Below, one piece after another: positions 5,532-53,876 of a stretch of DNA of 64,000 nt; within the stretch, counting starts at the first letter, position 1; the number at the start of each line of letters is the position of its first letter. The notes beneath the pieces are model-generated. The model was not told the origin of the DNA. It did no database searches and saw only the letters and a program-made list of their open reading frames with translations. The position numbers and the translations under genes are program-made. Source of the stretch: Acidobacteriota bacterium (GTDB lineage Bacteria > Acidobacteriota > UBA6911); assembly GCA_963664705.1 (NCBI GenBank), contig OY761556.1:5184001-5248000 (forward strand). The letters run 5' to 3'.

Positions 5532-5730
5532 CAGCCCCGGAGGGGCGATCAGAAAATAGCCGGGGGTGAAGCGAAGCGAACCCCCGGTAGAAATGGGCGC
5601 GAGAAAGAGCCCTGAAGGGGCGAAAGATTGGGCATTCTGCCGCCCCTTCAGGGCTTATTACTGGTCTTATCCAATCCGGGGGTTCGCTTCGCTTCACCCC
5701 CGGCTACTCTCTTTCGGCCCTCCGGGCCTG
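5532..5730. repeat. ~200-bp nested palindrome, REP/REPIN-like
   Basis: Perfect 31-bp IR 5557-5587/5676-5706; perfect 15-bp IR 5608-5622/5641-5655; outer 17-bp IR with 2 mismatches 5532-5548/5714-5730. Confidence 0.85.
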
Positions 5731-7628: not shown

Positions 7629-8426
7629 ATGTTGCATAGAATTGTAGCCATCGCCAGCAATACATTTCGGGAGACAGTGCGCGACAAGATTCTATATAAC
7701 CTGATTCTGTTTGCCCTGATTATGATTCTGAGCTCGATCCTCCTCGGCCAGCTTACCCTGGGAAACGAAGAAAAGATCATCCTGGATTTAGGGCTCTCGT
7801 CCATCTCGATTTTCGGGATGCTCATCGCCATATTCATCGGCATCGGGCTGGTCCATAAGGAACTTGAAAAACGGACTGTGTACGCCCTGCTGGCAAAACC
7901 GGTGCACCGGTACGAGCTTATTCTGGGCAAATATCTCGGACTTCTGTTCACGTTGCTGGTCAATGTATCGGTGATGACAGCCGGACTGGAACTGGCGCTC
8001 CTCTACACCGGCAAGATCGGACTGGGCGGATACCTGCGCGTGTTGCCCGCTGTTTTTCTTATCTTTCTATCGCTGGCTCTAACAACCGCACTGGCACTTC
8101 TGTTTTCGACTTTCTCAACGCCGGCTCTTTCCGCCCTGTTTACGTTTTTCCTCTGGATCATCGGCCATTTCGGGAAAGACTTGCAGCAATTTGGCTCACT
8201 GGCAAAATCGACCCTGGCCAGCTGGCTTTGCAGGGTTCTATCTTACGTGCTCCCCAACCTTCAGAATTTCTCTCTCATTGACAGCCGAGGCATCCTCGGG
8301 AGCGCCGGAAGCACGATAGCTATCAATGCGCCGGCCATTGCGGGTTCCACCGCATATGCCATTCTGTATTGCGCGGCCGTCCTGTCGCTGTCCGTCGTTG
8401 TTTTCATGCGCCGGGATTTCAAATGA
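7629..8426 (+). CDS. ABC-2 type permease (PilI-like)
   Basis: IASNTFRETVRDK, multiple TM segments, ELEKRTVYALLAKP, C-terminal FMRRDF. Confidence 0.88.
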   Translation: MLHRIVAIASNTFRETVRDKILYNLILFALIMILSSILLGQLTLGNEEKIILDLGLSSISIFGMLIAIFIGIGLVHKELEKRTVYALLAKPVHRYELILGKYLGLLFTLLVNVSVMTAGLELALLYTGKIGLGGYLRVLPAVFLIFLSLALTTALALLFSTFSTPALSALFTFFLWIIGHFGKDLQQFGSLAKSTLASWLCRVLSYVLPNLQNFSLIDSRGILGSAGSTIAINAPAIAGSTAYAILYCAAVLSLSVVVFMRRDFK

Positions 8427-9364
8427 ACCGGGTAGAGGCTGGGAACTCAAAAAGCGGATGGATATTCCTCGGAATATTCCTGGTCTGCGCCGCTTTGATC
8501 AAGCCGGCACAGGATCTACTGGAAGCCCGACGGGGTGACCCGGGCCCGGACGCCGATCTGCTTTACTTCAGCTCCCCATCGATGGTGAAACGGATGGCAT
8601 TGAGCTATGGCCCCCTGCTCGCGGATTTTTACTGGCTGCGCACCATCCAATATTACGGTCGTCGCGAAGAAGCGGATAGAAGGCTGGTGCGCTATAAAAA
8701 TCTGCCGGCCCTGCTCGATATCACGACGACGCTGGACCCGGATTTGATCGATGCCTACCGGTCCGGAAGTGTTTTCCTCGGCGAGGAAGAGCCGCTCGGA
8801 GCCGGCAAGCCGCTGGAGTCATTGAAGCTGCTCGATAAAGGGATCCGCATGCATCCGCAGGACTGGCGCCTGCGCTATGACAAAGGCTTTGTATACTACT
8901 GGTATTTGAAGGATTACCGGAATGCGGGCGATACATGGCGGGAAGCCGGTCGTCTGCAGAATGCCCCGCACTGGCTGGAACCGCTCGCTGCCATGGCGCT
9001 TTCAAAAGGAGGAGCCGTGGATGTTGCGGCGGCTCTTTGGCAGATACAATACCAGAATTCGACAAGAGCCGATGTTCGCGAGAACGCCAGGAACCATCTG
9101 TTCAGCCTCGAGGCAATGCGGGATATCTGGACGTTTGAGTTCCTGCTGGAAAAATATCGGGCCGAGCATGGATCCTATCCACGGACGCTGGGCGAACTGG
9201 TGCGGGGAAAAGCAAAGCCCTATCGACTGCTGGACCCAACGGGCACGCCGTATGAATACAATCCTGCAACCGGCACAGTTTCATTGAGCTCAAACACCAC
9301 GATGAAATACCTCGAAGTTCCCAATTCCTATAAAGAGCAGTTTCTGGCGAGGATTCAAGAGTAG
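8423..9364 (+). CDS. Membrane-anchored TPR-like protein (PilG/XapA-like) with GspG-like C-terminal motif
   Basis: ATGA overlap with permease; ADFYWLRTIQYYG, TTLDP, helical repeats; C-terminal HGSYPRTLGELV...DPTGTPYEY. Confidence 0.7.
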   Translation: MNRVEAGNSKSGWIFLGIFLVCAALIKPAQDLLEARRGDPGPDADLLYFSSPSMVKRMALSYGPLLADFYWLRTIQYYGRREEADRRLVRYKNLPALLDITTTLDPDLIDAYRSGSVFLGEEEPLGAGKPLESLKLLDKGIRMHPQDWRLRYDKGFVYYWYLKDYRNAGDTWREAGRLQNAPHWLEPLAAMALSKGGAVDVAAALWQIQYQNSTRADVRENARNHLFSLEAMRDIWTFEFLLEKYRAEHGSYPRTLGELVRGKAKPYRLLDPTGTPYEYNPATGTVSLSSNTTMKYLEVPNSYKEQFLARIQE

Positions 9365-9386: not shown

Positions 9387-11129
9387 CCGGCTTGACCGAT
9401 CAATGGCGTTGGTTAGTTTTTGGATTTGAACCGCGAAGACCTCGAAGACCGCAAAGCAAGATTTTTGGGCTTATTTTGCTGCCGGTGGCAGATGGAGTCC
9501 AGCGTATGCTCCCGCGAGAATGATACGCGCAAAGCCTACAAATATATTTTCTTCGCGGTCTTCGCGGTCTTTGCGGTCTTTGCGGTCTTTGCGGTCTTCG
9601 CGGTTATCGAAAGCTCTTTCATCGTGTCTGCACGATCCAGCGGTATCCATTCCTGCAACTTGGCCGGCTTGACCGATCAATGGCATTGGTTAGTTTTTGG
9701 ATTTGAATCGCGAAGACCGCAAAGCAAGATTTTTGGGCTTATTTTGCTGCCAGTGGCAGATGGAGTCCAGCGTATGCTCCCGCGAGAATGATACGCGCAA
9801 AGCCTACAAACATATTTTCTTCGCGGTCTTTGCGGTCTTCGCGGTTATCGAAAGCTCTTTCATCGTGTCTGCACGATCCAGCGGTATCCATTCCTGCAAC
9901 TTGGCCGGCTTGACCGATCAATGGCGTTGGTTAGTTTTTGGATTTGAACCGCGAAGACCTCGAAGACCGCAAAGCAAGATTTTTGGGCTCATTGTGCTGC
10001 CGGTGGCAGATGGGGTCCAGCGTATGCTCCGGCGAGAATGATACGCGCAAAGCCTACAAATATATTTTCTTCGCGGTCTTTGCGGTCTTTGCGGTTATCG
10101 GAAGCTCTTTCATCGTGTCTGCACGATCCAGCGGTATCCATTCCTGCAACTTGGCCGGCTTGACCGATCAATGGCGTTGGTTAGTTTTTGGATTTGAATC
10201 GCGAAGACCTCGAAGACCGCAAAGCAAGATTTTTGGGCTCATTGTGCTGCCGGTGGCAGATGGAGTCCAGCGTATGCTCCCGCGAGAATGATACGCGCAA
10301 AGCCTACAAATATATTTTCTTCGCGGTCTTTGCGGTCTTCGCGGTTATCGAAAGCTCTTTCATCGTGTCTGCACGATCCAGCGGTATCCATTCCTGCAAC
10401 TTGGCCGGCTTGACCGATCAATGGCGTTGGTTAGTTTTTGGATTTGAATCGCGAAGACCTCGAAGACCGCAAAGCAAGATTTTTGGGCTTATTTTGCTGC
10501 CAGTGGCAGATGGAGTCCAGCGTATGCTCCCGCGAGAATGATACGCGCAAAGCCTACAAACATATTTTCTTCGCGGTCTTTGCGGTCTTCGCGGTTATCG
10601 AAAGCTCTTTCATCGTGTCTGCACGATCCAGCGGTATCCATTCCTGCAACTTGGCCGGCTTGACCGATCAATGGCGTTGGTTAGTTTTTGGATTTGAATC
10701 GCGAAGACCTCGAAGACCGCAAAGCAAGATTTTTGGGCTTATTTTGCTGCCGGTGGCAGATGGAGTCCAGCGTATGCTCCCGCGAGAATGATACGCGCAA
10801 AGCCTACAAATATATTTTCTTCGCGGTCTTTGCGGTCTTCGCGGTTATCGAAAGCTCTTTCATCGTGTCTACTCGATCCAGCGGTATCCATTCCTGCAAC
10901 TTGGCCGGCTTGACCGATCAATGGCGTTGGTTAGTTTTTGGATTTGAATCGCGAAGACCTCGAAGACCGCAACGTAAGTTTTTTGGGCTCATTTTGCTGC
11001 CGGTGGCAGATGGAGTCCAGCGTATGCTCCGGCGAGAATGATACGCGCAAAGCCTACAAACATATTTTCTTCGCGGTCTTTGCGGTCTTCGCGGTTATCG
11101 GAAGCTCTTTCATCGTGTCTGCACGATCC
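9387..11129. repeat. Tandem array of 7 ~250-bp units, each a GxxExxY-derived miniature element with 9-mer-built inverted repeats
   Basis: Unit starts 9387, 9664, 9905, 10155, 10405, 10655, 10905 (277, 241, 250, 250, 250, 250 and 225 bp partial). Each has ccgcgaagacctcgaagaccgcaaag-type left arm and (ctt[c/t]gcggt)n right arm; homologous to 53440-53740. Confidence 0.97.
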
Positions 11130-11159: not shown

Positions 11160-13331
11160 TTAGCCGGCAAGTGTGACGCGGTCTCTCCCTGCGGCTTTGC
11201 TTCGATACAGCGCCTTATCCGCGGCATCAATCAATGCGCTGGCGGTCCGGCCATGATCCGGAAACACGGCGACTCCCATGGAGGCCGTGATCTTCCCCAA
11301 TGGATTTCCGCGGAAATGGACATCGAGTCTCTGGATGGACTCCTTGAAGAATTCCGCTCGCTGCCGGGTTACAGCTCCGGTGCCCTCAGGCAGGATTAGC
11401 GTGAACTCCTCGCCACCATACCGGCAGGCAATATCCTCGCCGCGTATATTGCTCCGCAAAAGCGTTCCAAGTTCCTTCAGCAGCAGATCACCGGCTTCGT
11501 GCCCGAAGGTATCGTTGAAATACTTGAAATGGTCAAGATCGATCATGATCATACCCAGCGGGCGCTGGTTGCGCGTGGCGCGGCGGATCTCGAGTTCCAG
11601 CGACTCCTCCATAAACCTGCGGTTGAAGAGACCGGTCAGCGGATCGCGGATGGACTGGCTTCTCAGCGTTTCATGCAATCTTAAATTCGACAAAGCCATG
11701 GCAATGTGCTCGGACATCGTGACGGCAAGCCTCTGCTTGCTTTCCGTCATCTTGACGTTGTCGGGCTGCATGAGGTGCAGCACACCAAGGGCCTCGCTTT
11801 GAGCCATCATGGGAATGCACATATAGCCGTCGGCGGGAGGCTTATGAATATGCCGACAGACCATGCCGGCGTGAAAATTTTCGACCCAGTGCGTCCGGCC
11901 CCTGCGCAACGCCCAGCATTCCTGCGGTGTAAACGAACGTTCCACCAGCGCCGAATCGCCCCAGATCGCGGCGGCTTCGACTGAATTGCGCGAAGAAGCT
12001 ATCACGTACAGCGCTCCCACTTTCACCGGGAAAATCTGCTGCGCCACACGAACGATTACGTGGTAAGCCTCTTCGGTTGTCATGCAGGCACGAAGAATGT
12101 CTCCCATTTCATTCAGGAGAGTCATTTCGCGCGTGCGCTGCTCGAGCTCACCGACCCAGGCTTCCAGCTTCTGGTTGGCTTCCTGAAGTGCGGCCTCGGT
12201 CTTCTTGCGCTTGGTAATATCCCGCGCGATCCCTTGAACGGCAACGGCTTTTCCACCGCGGAAGATCGGGCGCGTACTGATTCCCAAGGTGATGCGGCTG
12301 CCATCTTTGGCTATGAACTCCAGCTCGTAGTTGAGCGGGACTTCTCCCCCGATCTGAGGGTCCATCATCTTCTGGCCGAGATGCAGATACTCCGGCGCCA
12401 TGGTATCGGTTATGCGCATCTGCAGCGCTTCTGCTCTCGTATACCCGGTGATTCTCTCCACGGCGCGGTTTATCGATAAAACCCTTCCCTCGAAATCGTG
12501 CGTGAAGATGATGTCGCTGGCGTTCTCAAACAGCTCACGATACTGTCCGTCGCTATCCACCGCTCTCGGGGCGGCGTTCTGCATAACCTGCGGCTCGGCT
12601 TCCCGGTGCTTACGGAATACATGCTCGAGCCGCGGCTCACTCCTGGCCAACGCCTCCAAGTGAAGGCGCACGTAAGGGTGATCTTCAGCGGAAATTTCGG
12701 GGTGCGCTTCCACCCAGAGGTGCGAAGCCTTGATGGTGGCAAGAAATGCCGTCAGATAGCTGTATTGATCCGATCCCAGGAGCTCCCGGAGCTCGGCGGC
12801 ACAACGTTCAAATCCATTATGCCCCAGGAAGACCACCGTGCAGCAGGTGATCAAATTGGCTTCAAATGCTTCGTCGTCAGGCCAGGTTCCCAGCGGGTGC
12901 GGAATCTTTGCCAGCAACTCCCGCGCATTCTCCACACGATGGTTGGAAAATGCGGGGACTTCCAGTAATTGCCTTATTGCCGCAGCCGGAATTCCCATCT
13001 GGTGCATTGTGCAGGCGTGCGTGATGATGAAATAGGGAGAGGCGCAATACCGGGACAGCCGGATAGCCAGCTTTTCCTTGAACAGCGGCGGCAACGGATT
13101 GTCATGGTACGCGGAGACCTGCTGCCGCCAGAGAGCCTCCAACAATGCGGGCGATCCCAATGCGGGAAAGAAAAACGGCGGAAGAACACCCAACCGCTCC
13201 GTTATCTCGCGTTTGAGCTTCTCCACTGTTTGTTCCTGGCCAGGGACCAGATCAGACTCGAGACGCTTCAGGTTCTCAAGCTTCTCCCAAAGCGATTCGA
13301 GTTCTTTGCCTGTTTGATCCACCCATTCCAT
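11160..13331 (-). CDS. Diguanylate cyclase: AhpD/CMD-like - PAS - GAF - GGDEF (intact GGEEF)
   Basis: PAS YRELFENASDIIF, RDPLTGLFNRR, DLDHFK, I-site RGED, RYGGEEF. Start ATG 13331 or TTG 13352. Confidence 0.93.
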   Translation of the reverse strand: MEWVDQTGKELESLWEKLENLKRLESDLVPGQEQTVEKLKREITERLGVLPPFFFPALGSPALLEALWRQQVSAYHDNPLPPLFKEKLAIRLSRYCASPYFIITHACTMHQMGIPAAAIRQLLEVPAFSNHRVENARELLAKIPHPLGTWPDDEAFEANLITCCTVVFLGHNGFERCAAELRELLGSDQYSYLTAFLATIKASHLWVEAHPEISAEDHPYVRLHLEALARSEPRLEHVFRKHREAEPQVMQNAAPRAVDSDGQYRELFENASDIIFTHDFEGRVLSINRAVERITGYTRAEALQMRITDTMAPEYLHLGQKMMDPQIGGEVPLNYELEFIAKDGSRITLGISTRPIFRGGKAVAVQGIARDITKRKKTEAALQEANQKLEAWVGELEQRTREMTLLNEMGDILRACMTTEEAYHVIVRVAQQIFPVKVGALYVIASSRNSVEAAAIWGDSALVERSFTPQECWALRRGRTHWVENFHAGMVCRHIHKPPADGYMCIPMMAQSEALGVLHLMQPDNVKMTESKQRLAVTMSEHIAMALSNLRLHETLRSQSIRDPLTGLFNRRFMEESLELEIRRATRNQRPLGMIMIDLDHFKYFNDTFGHEAGDLLLKELGTLLRSNIRGEDIACRYGGEEFTLILPEGTGAVTRQRAEFFKESIQRLDVHFRGNPLGKITASMGVAVFPDHGRTASALIDAADKALYRSKAAGRDRVTLAG

Positions 13332-13677
13332 ATTCGACTGGTTCCGTCGCAATAAGATTGCTGCTGAATGCGCACACTAAGGTCCTGCATGGCAGCACAA
13401 CGCGAGTAAGGGGTGCGGGGCAAGGGGAACGCGAAGTAGCCGAAATCTCATTCTGACCAAAATCCAAGAAAACGCAAGGAGAAAAAGCATCGCCTGCAGC
13501 CTAAATTCAGGATGAAAAAGCAGCCCACAATGTACCGGAATGGAATGGTTCAATAGCACCAACTATTTTGATACATTTGCCCTAATGTTTATACATTGAG
13601 TGATTCATCCGGGGACCGTATCACGTCATTGGAATTTGCAAAAAGGGTTCTGATCTGGGGGGTGTGAGAAGGGCGGA

Positions 13678-15954
13678 TTAGCTTGCAACTACGATGCAAT
13701 TGCCCCCGCTGCTTTTGGCGCGGTTCAGTGCCGATTCCGCTGAACGCAGAAGACTCTGAACTGTCTGCCCATGCCCGGGAAAAACAGCAAGGCCTACGGA
13801 AGCGGAAATATGACCGACCTGGGTGCTCTGATATTTGACTTCAAGCGTATGAGCCAGGTTGCAGAGATTGTCCGCGCGTTGATGTCCAACCTCATAGGTG
13901 CTTTGAGGGAGCAAGATCACGAATGTCTGGTTGCTGTACCGGCAGGCGATATCCCCTTTCCGCACATTTGACTGCAGAAGCATGCCGGTCCGGCGCAGCA
14001 TGGAGTCTCCGATATCCAGCCCGTACTGGTCATTAATATACTGGAAGTTATCGAGCTCCAGCATGATCACGCTGAGGGCGAACTGACTGCGCGCTGCCCG
14101 GCGCAGTTCGAGTTCCAGTGATTCCTCCATGAAACTGCGGTTGAAGAGTCCCGTAAGCTGATCGCGGATGGACTGGTTCCGCAGCTTTTCGTGCAGACGG
14201 AGATTTGAAAGCGCCATTGCGACGTGCTCCGCCATTGCCACGGCAAGCCGTTGCTTGGCTTCCGGCATCTGCTCGCCTTCCTGCATGGAGAGATGCAGAA
14301 CTCCCACGGCTTCGCTCTGTGCCATCATGGGAACGCACAGATATCCACTCGGCAGGGGCGGATGCAGATGTTTGCACAGAAGGCCGATTCGCGTGTCTTC
14401 CACCCAATGGATCCGGCCTCTGCGCAACGCCCAGCATTCATCGGGCGTAAAGGTAAGCTCCATTCCGGTGATATCGCCCCAGTCTGCAACGACCTCGACG
14501 ATATTCCGTGTCGGACCGATGACGAAGAGCGCTCCACCCTGCTGGGGAAAGATCTCCTTTGCTACTCTGACAATCACCTCGAAGACTTCTTCCGAGGTGA
14601 AGCAGGCGCGAAGAATGTCCCCCATCTCGCTGAGCAGTGTCATCTCTCTAGTGCGCTGCTCGAGTTCCTGGACCCAGGCTTCGAGTTTTTTGTTTGCCTG
14701 CTGCAAAGCTTCTTCGGTTTTTTTCCGCTCGGTAATATCGCGGGCGATGCCCTGGATCCCGACTGGCTTCCCTTCCCTGAAGATCAGCCGGTTGCTGACT
14801 TCGAGAATGGCGCGGGTATTGTCCTTGGTGACAATTTCGAGCTCCTGGGTTATGGGCGCCTCGTCGGCAATTTGCCGATCGACCATTCTGCGCGCCGCCT
14901 GCTGGAATTCCGGAGCTACGAACTGAATGAAGCGCATCTGAAGGGCTTCTGCCCTGGAATACCCAATGATCCGCTCCGCAGCTTTATTGATAGAAGTGAT
15001 CCGGCCGGACAGATCGTGGGTGTAGACCATGTCATAAGCGTTTTCAAACAGCTCCCGGTACCGCTCCTCGCTGAGCCGCTTGGCTTCTTCGGCCAGCTTG
15101 CGCTCGGTCACATCGCGAATGATGGCCAACCCGCCGATCACGTCCCGCGTCTGCGGATCGTACATGGGGCCATAATAGCCTTCAAAAAAGATCTGTCTGT
15201 TCGTCCCTGGGATCTGGTACCGCTTGTCCACCGAGATGACCTTGTTTCCGGCGAGAGCGGCGGCAAAATTCGTATCCTCGCCGAGGTCTTTCAGAAAGGG
15301 ACATGCTTTGAATGCCGGCCTGCCCAGCGTATCGCCTGCGCCGACTCCGAAGATTCTCTCCATCGCCGGATTCCAGACGGTAAAGAAATACTCGCGGTCA
15401 AACGCGAGAATCCCGTCCAGGCTGCTGTTGATCAGCCCTTCCAACTGCTGCTTGTCATGCTGGAAGGTCACTTCATCCCATTTCCGGGCACCAATATCTT
15501 CAAACATCACCAGGCAACATTTGGCCGGATCGTCAGGGTTGCTGGAAACGGTAACCTGTACCCAGAAGGCTTCGCCCTTCCTGGTTCGCAACTGCTCTTC
15601 CAACCGGGTACTGGAAACGACGCCATCGAATACCTGGCGCAGCGCCCGGGCGAATTCCTCCGCTTCCAAGGCAAGATCGATGACGCTGATGGACTTCATT
15701 TCCGACGGAGTGTAGCCCAACATGACGCACAGCGATCGGTTCGCCCTCAGAATCCTGAATTGGGAGTCAATCAACGCCACTCCCATCGGGCCATTCTCCA
15801 GCATGGAAGGGGGGATCTGAATTTCCTCCTCTTCTGCGGGCGAGGACGGCTCGGACGGAGGATGGCTTTGAATCAATACCTGGAGATGCGCAATTTCATC
15901 GCGCAGCGATTCCAGTTCCTCCGCCAGATCCTTTTTTGGGGGCTTCTCTTCCAT
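13678..15954 (-). CDS. PAS3-GAF-degenerate GGDEF protein
   Basis: Three PAS-like segments, GAF, RDQLTGLFNR; active-site position reads RYSNQTF; RKGD I-site kept. Confidence 0.9.
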   Translation of the reverse strand: MEEKPPKKDLAEELESLRDEIAHLQVLIQSHPPSEPSSPAEEEEIQIPPSMLENGPMGVALIDSQFRILRANRSLCVMLGYTPSEMKSISVIDLALEAEEFARALRQVFDGVVSSTRLEEQLRTRKGEAFWVQVTVSSNPDDPAKCCLVMFEDIGARKWDEVTFQHDKQQLEGLINSSLDGILAFDREYFFTVWNPAMERIFGVGAGDTLGRPAFKACPFLKDLGEDTNFAAALAGNKVISVDKRYQIPGTNRQIFFEGYYGPMYDPQTRDVIGGLAIIRDVTERKLAEEAKRLSEERYRELFENAYDMVYTHDLSGRITSINKAAERIIGYSRAEALQMRFIQFVAPEFQQAARRMVDRQIADEAPITQELEIVTKDNTRAILEVSNRLIFREGKPVGIQGIARDITERKKTEEALQQANKKLEAWVQELEQRTREMTLLSEMGDILRACFTSEEVFEVIVRVAKEIFPQQGGALFVIGPTRNIVEVVADWGDITGMELTFTPDECWALRRGRIHWVEDTRIGLLCKHLHPPLPSGYLCVPMMAQSEAVGVLHLSMQEGEQMPEAKQRLAVAMAEHVAMALSNLRLHEKLRNQSIRDQLTGLFNRSFMEESLELELRRAARSQFALSVIMLELDNFQYINDQYGLDIGDSMLRRTGMLLQSNVRKGDIACRYSNQTFVILLPQSTYEVGHQRADNLCNLAHTLEVKYQSTQVGHISASVGLAVFPGHGQTVQSLLRSAESALNRAKSSGGNCIVVAS

Positions 15955-22082: not shown

Positions 22083-22159
22083 TGAAATCTGGATTCTCGA
22101 ACCTGGAATCTGAAATCTGAAATCCGAAATCTGGAATCCGAAATCTGGAATCTGAAATT
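22083..22159 (+). repeat. Heptamer tandem repeat, 11 units of (T/C)G(A/G)AATC
   Basis: tgaaatc tggattc tcgaacc tggaatc tgaaatc tgaaatc cgaaatc tggaatc cgaaatc tggaatc tgaaatt. Confidence 0.9.
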
Positions 22160-51689: not shown

Positions 51690-53339
51690 ATGGACTCCAC
51701 ACCCAGAATCAAAGCGCCTCGCGGCAACCAACTCCAATGCAAAGGATGGCAGCAGGAAGCTGCCATGCGGATGCTGATGAACAATCTGGACGAAGAGGTG
51801 GCAGAGCGTCCTCAGGACCTTGTAGTCTATGGTGGCAGCGGCAAAGCTGCGCGCAACTGGAGCTGTTACTCATCCATCATTCGCTCTTTGCAGCAGCTGG
51901 AAAATGATGAGACCCTTCTGGTCCAATCCGGCAAACCCGTCGGCATATTCCGGACACACGAGTATTCCCCGCGAGTGCTGATCGCCAACTCAAACCTGGT
52001 AGGCCGCTGGGCAGACTGGGAGGAGTTCCGCCGCCTGGAAGCCCTGGGGTTAATGATGTATGGGCAGATGACCGCAGGCAGCTGGATTTATATCGGCAGC
52101 CAGGGGATTGTGCAGGGGACCTATGAAACTTTCGCTGCAGCGGCTCGCCGTCACTTTGCAGGAACGCTGCAAGGCAGGATCCTGGTATCCGGCGGATTGG
52201 GCGGCATGGGAGGAGCTCAGCCCCTAGCGGCCACCATGGCCGGCGCTGCTTTTCTGGGCATAGAAGTGGATCCGGCCCGAATTCAGAAACGAATCCAAAC
52301 GGGATACTGCGACAGGATAAGCTTCAGTCTCGAAGAAGCGCTCGCACTTGTAGAACAGGCCGCCGCCGGAAAAAAGCCCCTCTCGGTGGGACTGGTTGGA
52401 AACTGCGCGGAAGTACTTCCCGAACTTGTGCGGCGCGGTTTTGTCCCGGACCTCCTGACCGATCAGACCAGTGCGCATGATCCACTTAACGGGTACATAC
52501 CCGCGGGGATCTCATTAACCGACGCGGAAGCCCTGCGACGCGATAATCCCGGCGAATACCTTCAACGCAGCATGGCATCCATCGCCACGCATGTACGTGC
52601 CATGCTGGAGCTGCAGGCAAAGGGAGCCATTACCTTCGACTATGGAAACAACCTTCGCGGGCAGGCTTTGAAAGCGGGCGTGGCAAACGCCCTTGATTTT
52701 CCCGGCTTTGTGCCGGCATATATTCGCCCGCTGTTTTGTGAAGGACGCGGTCCTTTTCGATGGGTCGCGCTCTCGGGCGATCCGGAGGATATTGCTCTTA
52801 CCGATGCGCTGGTTCTGGAGATGTTCTCAGAAAACGAAGAACTGTGCCGATGGATCCGGATGGCAAAGGCGAGGATTCGCTTTCAGGGTTTGCCCGCACG
52901 CATCTGCTGGCTGGGCTACGGCGAGCGGGCTGCCCTGGCTCTCCGGATGAATGATCTGGTTGCCGGCGGCAAACTGCATGCGCCCATCGTCATCGGTCGC
53001 GATCACCTGGATTGCGGTTCCGTGGCGTCGCCTTACCGTGAGACGGAAGGCATGAAGGATACGTCCGACGCGGTCGCCGACTGGCCGATCCTGAATGCAT
53101 TGTTAAACACAGCAAGCGGCGCATCCTGGGTTTCATTTCATCATGGCGGCGGAGTTGGAATGGGGTATTCTCTCCATGCAGGACAGGTCACTGTGGCCGA
53201 TGGCACAAACGCCATGCGGGACAGGATTGAACGGGTGATGACGAATGATCCCGGGATCGGTGTCGCTCGCCACGCGGATGCGGGGTATGAGGAGGCTCAG
53301 GAATTCGCCAGAATCCGAGGCATCAGAATTCCAGGCTGA
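51690..53339 (+). CDS. hutU: Urocanate hydratase
   Basis: [43 protein letters not shown]; SD GGAGG. Confidence 0.97.
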
Positions 53340-53357
53340 GAGCCCTCTCGCTTTATA

Positions 53358-53762
53358 GCACCGGACTTGCCCGGCTTTTGGGGAGATCTGAATATCCGGC
53401 AAAAATGTGGGCTAATTTGATCAAATCAGGTTCCATAAATAAATGGCGTGATTAGTTTTTATATTTGAACCGCGAAGACCTCGAAGACCGCAAAGATTTT
53501 TTGGCTCATTTTGCTGCTGGGCAATGAGCTAGTGTGATGGATAGGAAAGAAGTTGCTCATCATATCGTCGATTCAGCGGTGGCAATCCATACAGCGCCAG
53601 GATTGTTGGAGTCCGTTTATCAGCGGTGCTTAATGTGTGGAGCATCATGGATGGAATCCACCGTATGATCTGGCGAGAACGATAACCGTAAAACCTGCAA
53701 AATATTTTCTTTGCGGTCTTCGAGGTCTTCGCGGTTAATGGGGTTACTATTCGGTCAAGTCA
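53358..53762 (+). mobile_element. Putative non-autonomous GxxExxY-derived element
   Basis: Insert between the direct repeats; perfect 29-bp IR 53468-53496/53708-53736; homologous to the 9387-11129 units. Confidence 0.75.
53537..53685 (+). pseudogene. Internally deleted GxxExxY protein gene
   Basis: Manual translation MDRKEVAHHIVDSAVAIHTAPGLLESVYQRCL (GLLESVY = GxxExxY), joined out of frame to MDGIHRMIWRER* (family C-terminal DGIxR motif); central nuclease region absent. Confidence 0.88.
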
Positions 53763-53876
53763 GATGCGGGGTATGAGGAGGCTCAGGAATTCGCCGGAAT
53801 CCGAGGCATCAGAATTCCAGGCTGAGAGCCCTCTCGCTTTATATCAGCCAATTCAAACAGGACTCACGAAACTGAA

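Follow-up and report, generated by a model that had tools for sequence, protein, structure and literature searches.

The question raised by this locus is how seven near-identical, gene-less repeats came to stand head to tail between two converging genes, and how they are related to a similar element near 53 kb of the same window, by which we mean the whole 64,000-nt stretch analysed (C1:5184001-5248000 of the single-contig 6.89-Mb genome, G000). Our preferred answer, to which we give a probability of about 0.6, is that the array consists of seven head-to-tail, gene-less, hairpin-forming remnants of a GxxExxY cassette; a single landing here, followed by multiplication on the spot, is the likely origin of all seven.

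Anatomy of the array

The array and the genes on either side of it are located as follows:
8369..9364, + strand: left neighbour, a conserved gene without an NCBIfam match, converging on the array
9387..11129, + strand: tandem array of seven gene-less GxxExxY cassette units (repeat finding and alignment)
11160..13352, - strand: right neighbour, a PAS-GGDEF diguanylate cyclase gene, converging on the array

The initial annotation described seven tandem copies of about 250 bp, and repeat finding agrees with it. TRF gives a period of 250 with 96% matches, and the units start at 9387, 9664, 9905, 10155, 10405, 10655 and 10905, with lengths of 277, 241, 250, 250, 250, 250 and ~225 nt in array order (241-277 nt, apart from the seventh, which lacks its final 25 nt; the count is that of the assembly). 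Between any two units there are 1-10 substitutions, on average 5.8 in the 21 pairs, and whole 9-mers have also been gained or lost. In each unit a leader is followed by a left arm of tandem 9-mers, and a post-arm segment leads to the remnant of the GxxExxY C terminus; the inverted right arm comes next and then a tail of 58 nt. For unit 4 the parts are:
10155..10169, + strand: head, the first 7 nt of which are a microhomology common to the tail
10170..10196, + strand: leader, common to the family including the intact-gene locus (alignment)
10197..10224, + strand: left arm, tandem 9-mers
10225..10258, + strand: post-arm segment and an 8-nt piece, probably N-terminal coding sequence (by eye against C1:4637069)
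10259..10291, + strand: C-terminal GxxExxY remnant, DGVQRMLPRE* (alignment, translation)
10318..10346, + strand: right arm, an inverted copy of the left arm; the arms close a predicted long hairpin
10347..10404, + strand: tail B, which is element DNA and neither host flank nor the IS1634 right end

A unit aligns with the element at 53.4-53.7 kb in two blocks, one of ~87 nt (85%, E 4e-20), which covers leader, arm and post-arm segment, and one of 89 nt (83%, E 2e-18), which covers the C-terminal remnant, the post-stop sequence and the arm. Both are made mostly of sequence other than 9-mers, thus the homology extends well past the latter, and the alignment bears out the proposal that the array is built from this GxxExxY element, in a more reduced form that has been multiplied head to tail. 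The translation DGVQRMLPRE* is likewise present in the units. The likeness to the 53-kb element holds through the right arm, but the 58 nt beyond it have no match there. Similarly, the description of the unit as a C-only remnant is correct as to the C-terminal part, but 8 nt of the N-terminal part have probably been kept as well: ahead of the codons for DGV, the unit agrees over this length with N-terminal gene sequence, and copy C1:4637069 does the same (by eye). The intact gene with which the suggested series begins is absent from the window; it lies 3 Mb off, at C1:2163578-2163928.

Folding prediction gives one long hairpin for the unit (-92.9 kcal/mol, z -3.85, 0/200 shuffles). Other identities were considered and rejected: a CRISPR-like array (the units are near-identical and there are no unique spacers), a structured RNA family (0 Rfam matches to E 1 for the array unit) and protein coding by the ORFs of 114-123 aa, which are frame read-throughs of the repeat. 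Spurious ORFs of this kind, together with duplicated gene ends, are the practical effect of such arrays.

That the copy number is an artefact of assembly seems to us extremely improbable. The contamination of the genome is estimated at 6% and the number of units is read from the assembly; however, no two of the seven units are alike, what separates them is substitutions and whole 9-mers and not homopolymer slips, the assembly is a single contig, nine other sites of the family are multi-unit and a similar array is present in another genome.

The cassette family and its IS1634 ends

The search of the genome for monomers and arrays, which the initial annotation had proposed, yielded a family of such sites. 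The arm motif marks 30 clusters; C1:4374119 and C1:5784160 were set aside as probable chance or degenerate occurrences, and 28 sites were kept, 10 of them multi-unit (C1:6229768, with two units, is included). The gene at C1:2163578-2163928 is the only intact one among the 28 sites and stands between the same inverted 9-mer arms. Its product scores 134 bits against TIGR04256 (cut-off 35) and has a D...ExK motif (RADLLVD...VENK); no solved (PDB) homologue of the GxxExxY protein was found by sequence, and PF13366 is listed as of unknown function (PMC3424549). The other sites carry internal deletions with many different end points, often at microhomologies of 3-9 nt (by eye). At C1:4682060-4682330 the interior is inverted between the arms, and C1:270616-270879 has the IS right end on both sides. 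When used as a query, the unit matches 10 of the 29 other genomes of the genus.

Two further GxxExxY genes are present in this genome. The second (C1:4472230-4473150; L055:730-1660) has its own arm word and is followed by two head-to-tail, internally deleted copies with a period of ~240 nt and no IS ends. The third (C1:3800606-3800941; L003) has a third arm word, and none of the 49 clusters of a similar word stands in near direct repeat. Another small palindromic repeat family, with long local duplications, is found at C1:1320103, 2138720, 4447255, 4483460 and 1489235. In the genus and phylum, inverted arms flank 43 of 49 GxxExxY loci, compared with 2 of 150 control ORFs. The intact genes of four genomes give dN/dS values of 0.09-0.23 in 9 between-genome pairs, and to judge from these ratios the gene is under purifying selection between genomes; the single within-genome pair gives 0.80, on 7 changes only.

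The copy at 53 kb was analysed with respect to its ends and flanks, and the following features were assigned, all on the + strand:
53277..53360, + strand: left copy of an 84-nt target duplication, comprising the hutU 3' end, its stop codon and ~20 nt
53361..53763, + strand: IS1634-ended non-autonomous element with a GxxExxY remnant (N- and C-terminal parts)
53384..53430, + strand: remnant of a ~117-nt IS1634 miniature element at the 5' end of the copy (profile, E 3e-4 within the window)
53468..53496, + strand: left arm, 29 nt, 100% complementary to the right arm
53708..53736, + strand: right arm
53737..53763, + strand: IS1634 right end, tail A (score 42, 0/500 shuffles, shuffle maximum 18)
53763..53846, + strand: right copy of the target duplication, 98% identical to the left

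As the 84-nt repeat includes the end of hutU, it is host DNA. A candidate left terminal repeat of the 53-kb copy matches IS1634 at 14 of 17 nt, a score reached by 25 of 500 shuffles; in relatives the left repeat is near exact. This copy has the right terminal repeat, a cognate transposase in the genome and a target duplication that abuts both ends, and we infer that the IS1634 transposase moved it.

The genome holds one copy of IS1634 (C1:6057793-6059434, 1642 nt), with an open frame of 490 aa whose product, the transposase of C1:6057935-6059404, scores 326 bits against NF033559 (cut-off 100). Both flanks of this copy (L053) match REP-like repeats; it is apparently inserted in a REP and has no target duplication. 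REP-like repeats also adjoin several composite copies.

The right terminal repeat of IS1634 ends the element at 18 of the 28 family sites, the 53-kb site included. At nine of these 18, a host repeat of 50-121 nt starts -3 to +1 nt from the right end and has a copy before the first element, and in seven of the nine that copy ends no more than 10 nt from the left end. The remaining IS-ended sites comprise one with a 23-nt repeat elsewhere and eight with none before the first unit. Such a repeat was seen in 0 of 200 random pairs, and flanking repeats of 24-42 nt occur at 3 of the 10 sites without an IS end.

About 15 cargo-free IS1634 miniature elements of ~117 nt are scattered over the genome (e.g., C1:1230860, 2537517, 6077520 and 6304351). 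A profile was built from 11 such ~117-nt sequences, the IS itself being kept out of the training set. It matches the IS left end (E 1e-19) and both ends of the 53-kb copy, and on the array it finds no match to E 10. An internal copy of the right subterminal motif inside the IS left end could explain how the miniature elements originated. Long duplications are lacking at the IS copy of this genome and at 5 of the 6 cargo-free miniature elements with an intact right end.

The unit of the array was compared with these ends part by part. The head of unit 4 has an 8-nt match to the IS1634 left terminal repeat that is not significant alone (45 of 500 shuffles score as high), and the leader was rejected as an IS left end, only the terminal repeat being matched. 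Tail B against the inverted miniature element was marginal in one of eight comparisons (score 24, shuffle maximum 23), and the profile found no match in it. Tail B was also rejected as a host target duplication, as it recurs at a second site (C1:6073474-6073538) and in genome G005.

Of 22 relatives of the transposase 18 were examined, and both terminal repeats were located in 9 and ample flank in 5. In three of these five (60-63% identity, same terminal repeat) duplications of 81, 222 and 294 nt abut both ends. Composites of the relatives in which both ends are intact have a duplication abutting the left end (52 nt in L026, 36 nt in L046), and that of L026 holds an intact GxxExxY gene between both IS ends. 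Near-exact IS1634 ends were found at two of the 49 GxxExxY loci, and one degenerate case was seen in addition, all of them in this gene clade of the genus.

A close homologue of the transposase is found in G000 only among the 30 genomes of the genus; G005, G021 and G022, which are fragmented assemblies, hold the composite. Left ends are mostly truncated in G000, and at C1:4792232 the left end is shorter in the first copy than in the second, a difference that would fit a later deletion. In G005, composites on different contigs have flanks in common, right in one and left in the other (L041/L042 by BLAST; L041/L042/L043 and L029/L039 otherwise by eye). These matches are either target duplications swapped via recombination or the product of a mis-joined assembly; between the G000 sites without a duplication no swapped flanks were found among the matches listed. 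Repeats of 8-514 bp are given for IS1549 and IS1634 in PMC2266710, which also states that no model for these long variable repeats existed in 2008.

Descent and growth of the array

The initial annotation took the array for the end of a nested deletion series that passes through the 53-kb copy. A series of this kind does exist in the 53-kb (tail-A) lineage, where a gene junction near 166/393 is shared and further deletions are added, but the array is not its end. We compared the copies in a tree of 176 columns, with three of the seven array units, one copy per site, and without C1:4637069, C1:6774625, L029 and five atypical sites. The 53-kb copy falls in a clade of 14 rows (94/98), every member of which has the IS1634 right end (tail A). 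The array units (99/99) fall outside that clade, in an unresolved group with the intact gene and other tail-B copies. The AU test rejects a grouping of the array with the 53-kb copy on 176 columns (p-AU 0.0023, the bootstrap being not fully settled) but not on 76 columns, which give a weak tree (p-AU 0.10). After the stop codon the unit agrees with the intact gene where the 53-kb clade differs. The nearest look-alike of the unit is C1:4637069, which has the post-arm junction, the tail and several substitutions in common with it (by eye). Taken together, these comparisons suggest that the array is a cousin of the 53-kb copy and not its descendant.

It is thus very improbable that the unit descends from a 53-kb-type copy by further deletion followed by repeated insertion at its own end. 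Such descent would agree with the fact that, tail B aside, all cassette parts kept by the unit are kept in the 53-kb copy, and the 76-column test allows it. However, it conflicts with the 176-column test, with the post-stop sequence, with tail B in the place of an IS end and with the features common to C1:4637069, a copy that is not in the tree. Moreover, the unit has no right end for transposition, and repeated insertion at its own end by the transposase, one of the routes suggested for the array at the outset, is unlikely here for this reason.

The reading that we prefer, a single landing and multiplication in place, may be set out in steps. An arm-flanked GxxExxY cassette would have come to lie between IS1634-type ends in this genus. 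Transposition in trans by the IS1634 transposase would have dispersed this composite, and the target duplications left behind would be long and variable, as is typical of the clade of the transposase. The long inverted arms would then have destabilised the copies, giving rise to internal deletions that differ at many sites, often at 3-9-nt microhomologies, and to at least one interior inversion. At the array site, a template switch or crossover at a 7-nt match between head and tail would have produced a dimer, which unequal homologous exchange would have extended to seven units with shuffled variants; rolling-circle copying may have been the first amplification step. At IS-ended sites the target duplication itself would seed unequal exchange, and in the arrays there the unit includes host flank as well as the element. 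The unit of the present array, which has neither the IS right end nor a target duplication, is made of element DNA alone.

The 7-nt word in question occurs in the head of unit 1 and again in the tail of C1:6073474, a relative present as a single copy. It explains the junction between units but not why unit 7 stops 25 nt before the word, and this counts against a dimer origin at the 7-nt match, because the last unit should run through it. Other observations weigh against our reading: the array has no detectable IS1634 sequence or flanking duplication; nine of the 18 IS-ended sites have no abutting long duplication, and neither have the IS copy of this genome and most cargo-free miniature elements; short repeats flank three of the sites without an IS end; and among the 30 genomes a close transposase homologue was found in G000 only.

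The variation among the units bears on the later steps. There are 15 variable columns, 7 of them informative, and 9 of the 21 pairs of informative sites fail the four-gamete test; certain variants are common to units 2 and 5, and others to units 3 and 7. Such mosaic variants fit the unequal recombination that had been suggested from the start. They point to repeated unequal exchange or conversion, rather than to assembly stutter or one untouched burst, although recurrent mutation or strain mixing could mimic them. Amplification without IS ends does occur, namely at the second GxxExxY gene, in 7-mer and REP hairpins and in a 4 x 122-nt array of genome G017. At C1:3262257, 5438146, 5461542 and 1384447, 7-mer hairpins or REP doublets stand in tandem together with host flank, and one of these arrays duplicates an apparent gene end.

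A possible, though doubtful, alternative gives the active part to the GxxExxY protein. Nicks or cuts made by it at its own 9-mer arms would set off repair by strand displacement or rolling-circle synthesis, and the cassette would thereby be copied on the spot or to other places, as has been proposed for RAYT/BIME arrays; the array would then be a one-burst concatemer, later homogenised, and the IS1634 ends only a second route of spread. A rolling-circle model is described in PMC2817692. The inverted arms at 43 of 49 loci against 2 of 150 controls, the separate arm word of each of the three paralogues and the purifying selection between genomes are in line with an active protein. So are the adjacent partial self-copies without IS ends at two of the three intact genes here, and the near direct repeats in 14 of 28 family clusters compared with 28 of 464 for four other classes of hairpin repeat (p 2e-9, with crude motifs). 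The long target duplications, however, can account for most of this excess, and the duplications begin at the IS end, not at the arms. In addition, duplication is rare for the arm words that belong to the other two paralogues (6/100 and 0/49), unrelated hairpins amplify as well, and PF13366 has no listed function. Adjacent self-duplication was seen at 3 of 49 loci against 3 of 150 controls, most of these being short-read assemblies, which collapse repeats.

A more speculative view, which we hold to be unlikely, joins the two mechanisms in a two-tier parasite: a self-cutting, REPIN-like GxxExxY cassette based on a PD-(D/E)XK nuclease would hijack IS1634 ends for long-range spread, and its nuclease would act locally, on its own arms, to bring about deletion, inversion and head-to-tail amplification. 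If this were true, the fixed right junction, the variable left junction and the 50-121-nt duplications would reflect uncoupled, one-end-first strand transfer, which would explain how IS1634 comes by target duplications that are so long and variable.

Insertion site, possible function and known systems

The spacer that holds the array was followed in relatives at 19 loci. Both neighbour genes are present at 14 of them, with spacers of 2-918 nt, and no copy of the element was seen in these 14 syntenic spacers (in the first 400 nt and among the matches listed); therefore, the insertion is specific to this lineage. In G017 (L020:2714-3179) the same spacer carries an independent 4 x 122-nt array with a 7-mer repeat, unrelated to the present element, and since different repeats stand there in other relatives too, we regard the spacer as a hotspot.

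Copies of the family lie in convergent spacers at 16 of 27 sites, while such spacers make up 736 of 3556 (21%) in the genome (p 2e-5, with crude gene calls). A retrotransposon-like orientation bias was considered and rejected: the upstream gene is co-oriented at 19 of 27 sites (p 0.052), this follows from the convergent spacers and not from an orientation preference, and in tandem spacers only the count is 3 vs 3. Could the array be kept for a function, such as to terminate transcription in both directions, to stabilise RNA or to give rise to structured RNAs of unit length? The convergent bias and the predicted long hairpin would suit such a role, which we nevertheless consider highly improbable. 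The element was not seen in the 14 syntenic spacers, which hold varied other repeats. The unit has no Rfam match, no terminator-like site was found inside the array, and promoter-like sites in it are near chance (4 vs 1.9 +/- 1.2). Furthermore, tolerance of insertions explains the convergent bias equally well. The array is most likely selfish debris and at most a passive obstacle between converging transcripts.

Mobile insertion cassettes (MICs) are IS-derived non-autonomous elements with passenger genes. The 53-kb copy and 17 other sites resemble MITEs or cassettes of the IS1634 family, as they have the cognate right terminal repeat and no transposase, an autonomous partner in the genome, duplications of 50-121 nt at nine sites and, in relatives, an intact passenger gene between both ends. 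In contrast to such elements, the passenger here is an arm-flanked cassette that decays differently at many sites, the left ends are mostly truncated and many sites are tandem arrays. The array under study has no detectable IS ends, no terminal repeat and no target duplication.

REP sequences have a foot with a conserved tetranucleotide tag. With REPINs and BIMEs and their RAYT genes (PMC3116915, PMC2817692) the family has several features in common, namely hairpin doublets outside genes that are kin to the repeats around a dedicated gene, ordered tandem clusters that take in flanking DNA and a bias to convergent spacers; the rolling-circle and local-amplification models proposed for those systems apply in principle here. 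Unlike there, each arm is a run of 9-mers, parts of the gene survive in the units, and copies number in tens, not hundreds. The only intact gene between these arms encodes a GxxExxY protein of PD-(D/E)XK fold and not an HUH tyrosine transposase (RAYT), as judged from the arm-flanked gene. That gene is a clear member of GxxExxY/PDDEXK_3 (TIGR04256, PF13366), with inverted short-repeat arms like those of most loci of the family, and differs from the great majority in the IS1634 ends of its clade.

Taken by itself, the array is a modest finding of an ordinary kind, a local expansion like those of BIMEs and REPINs; the IS1634-GxxExxY composite is the testable lead. No report of a GxxExxY cassette on IS1634 ends was found in the literature searched, which leaves most subscription journals outside, and one mention of GxxExxY found there is incidental. 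The results provide a putative nuclease family, the gene being under purifying selection, with a candidate DNA target, its own arms. The genome is also a ready test system for the long duplications of IS1634, with 18 IS-ended insertions, nine measurable duplications and a single intact transposase.

Other repeats were noted in the window. A REP-like doublet at 5551-5712, with 37-nt arms that are 95% complementary, overlaps the predicted start of an rlmB-like ORF. At 22083-22158 there is a run of ~11 heptamers, of a type that forms ~177 clusters in the genome. Finally, 11488-11944 and 14006-14462 belong to adjacent paralogous genes, 72-81% alike in parts, the first of which is the diguanylate cyclase gene.
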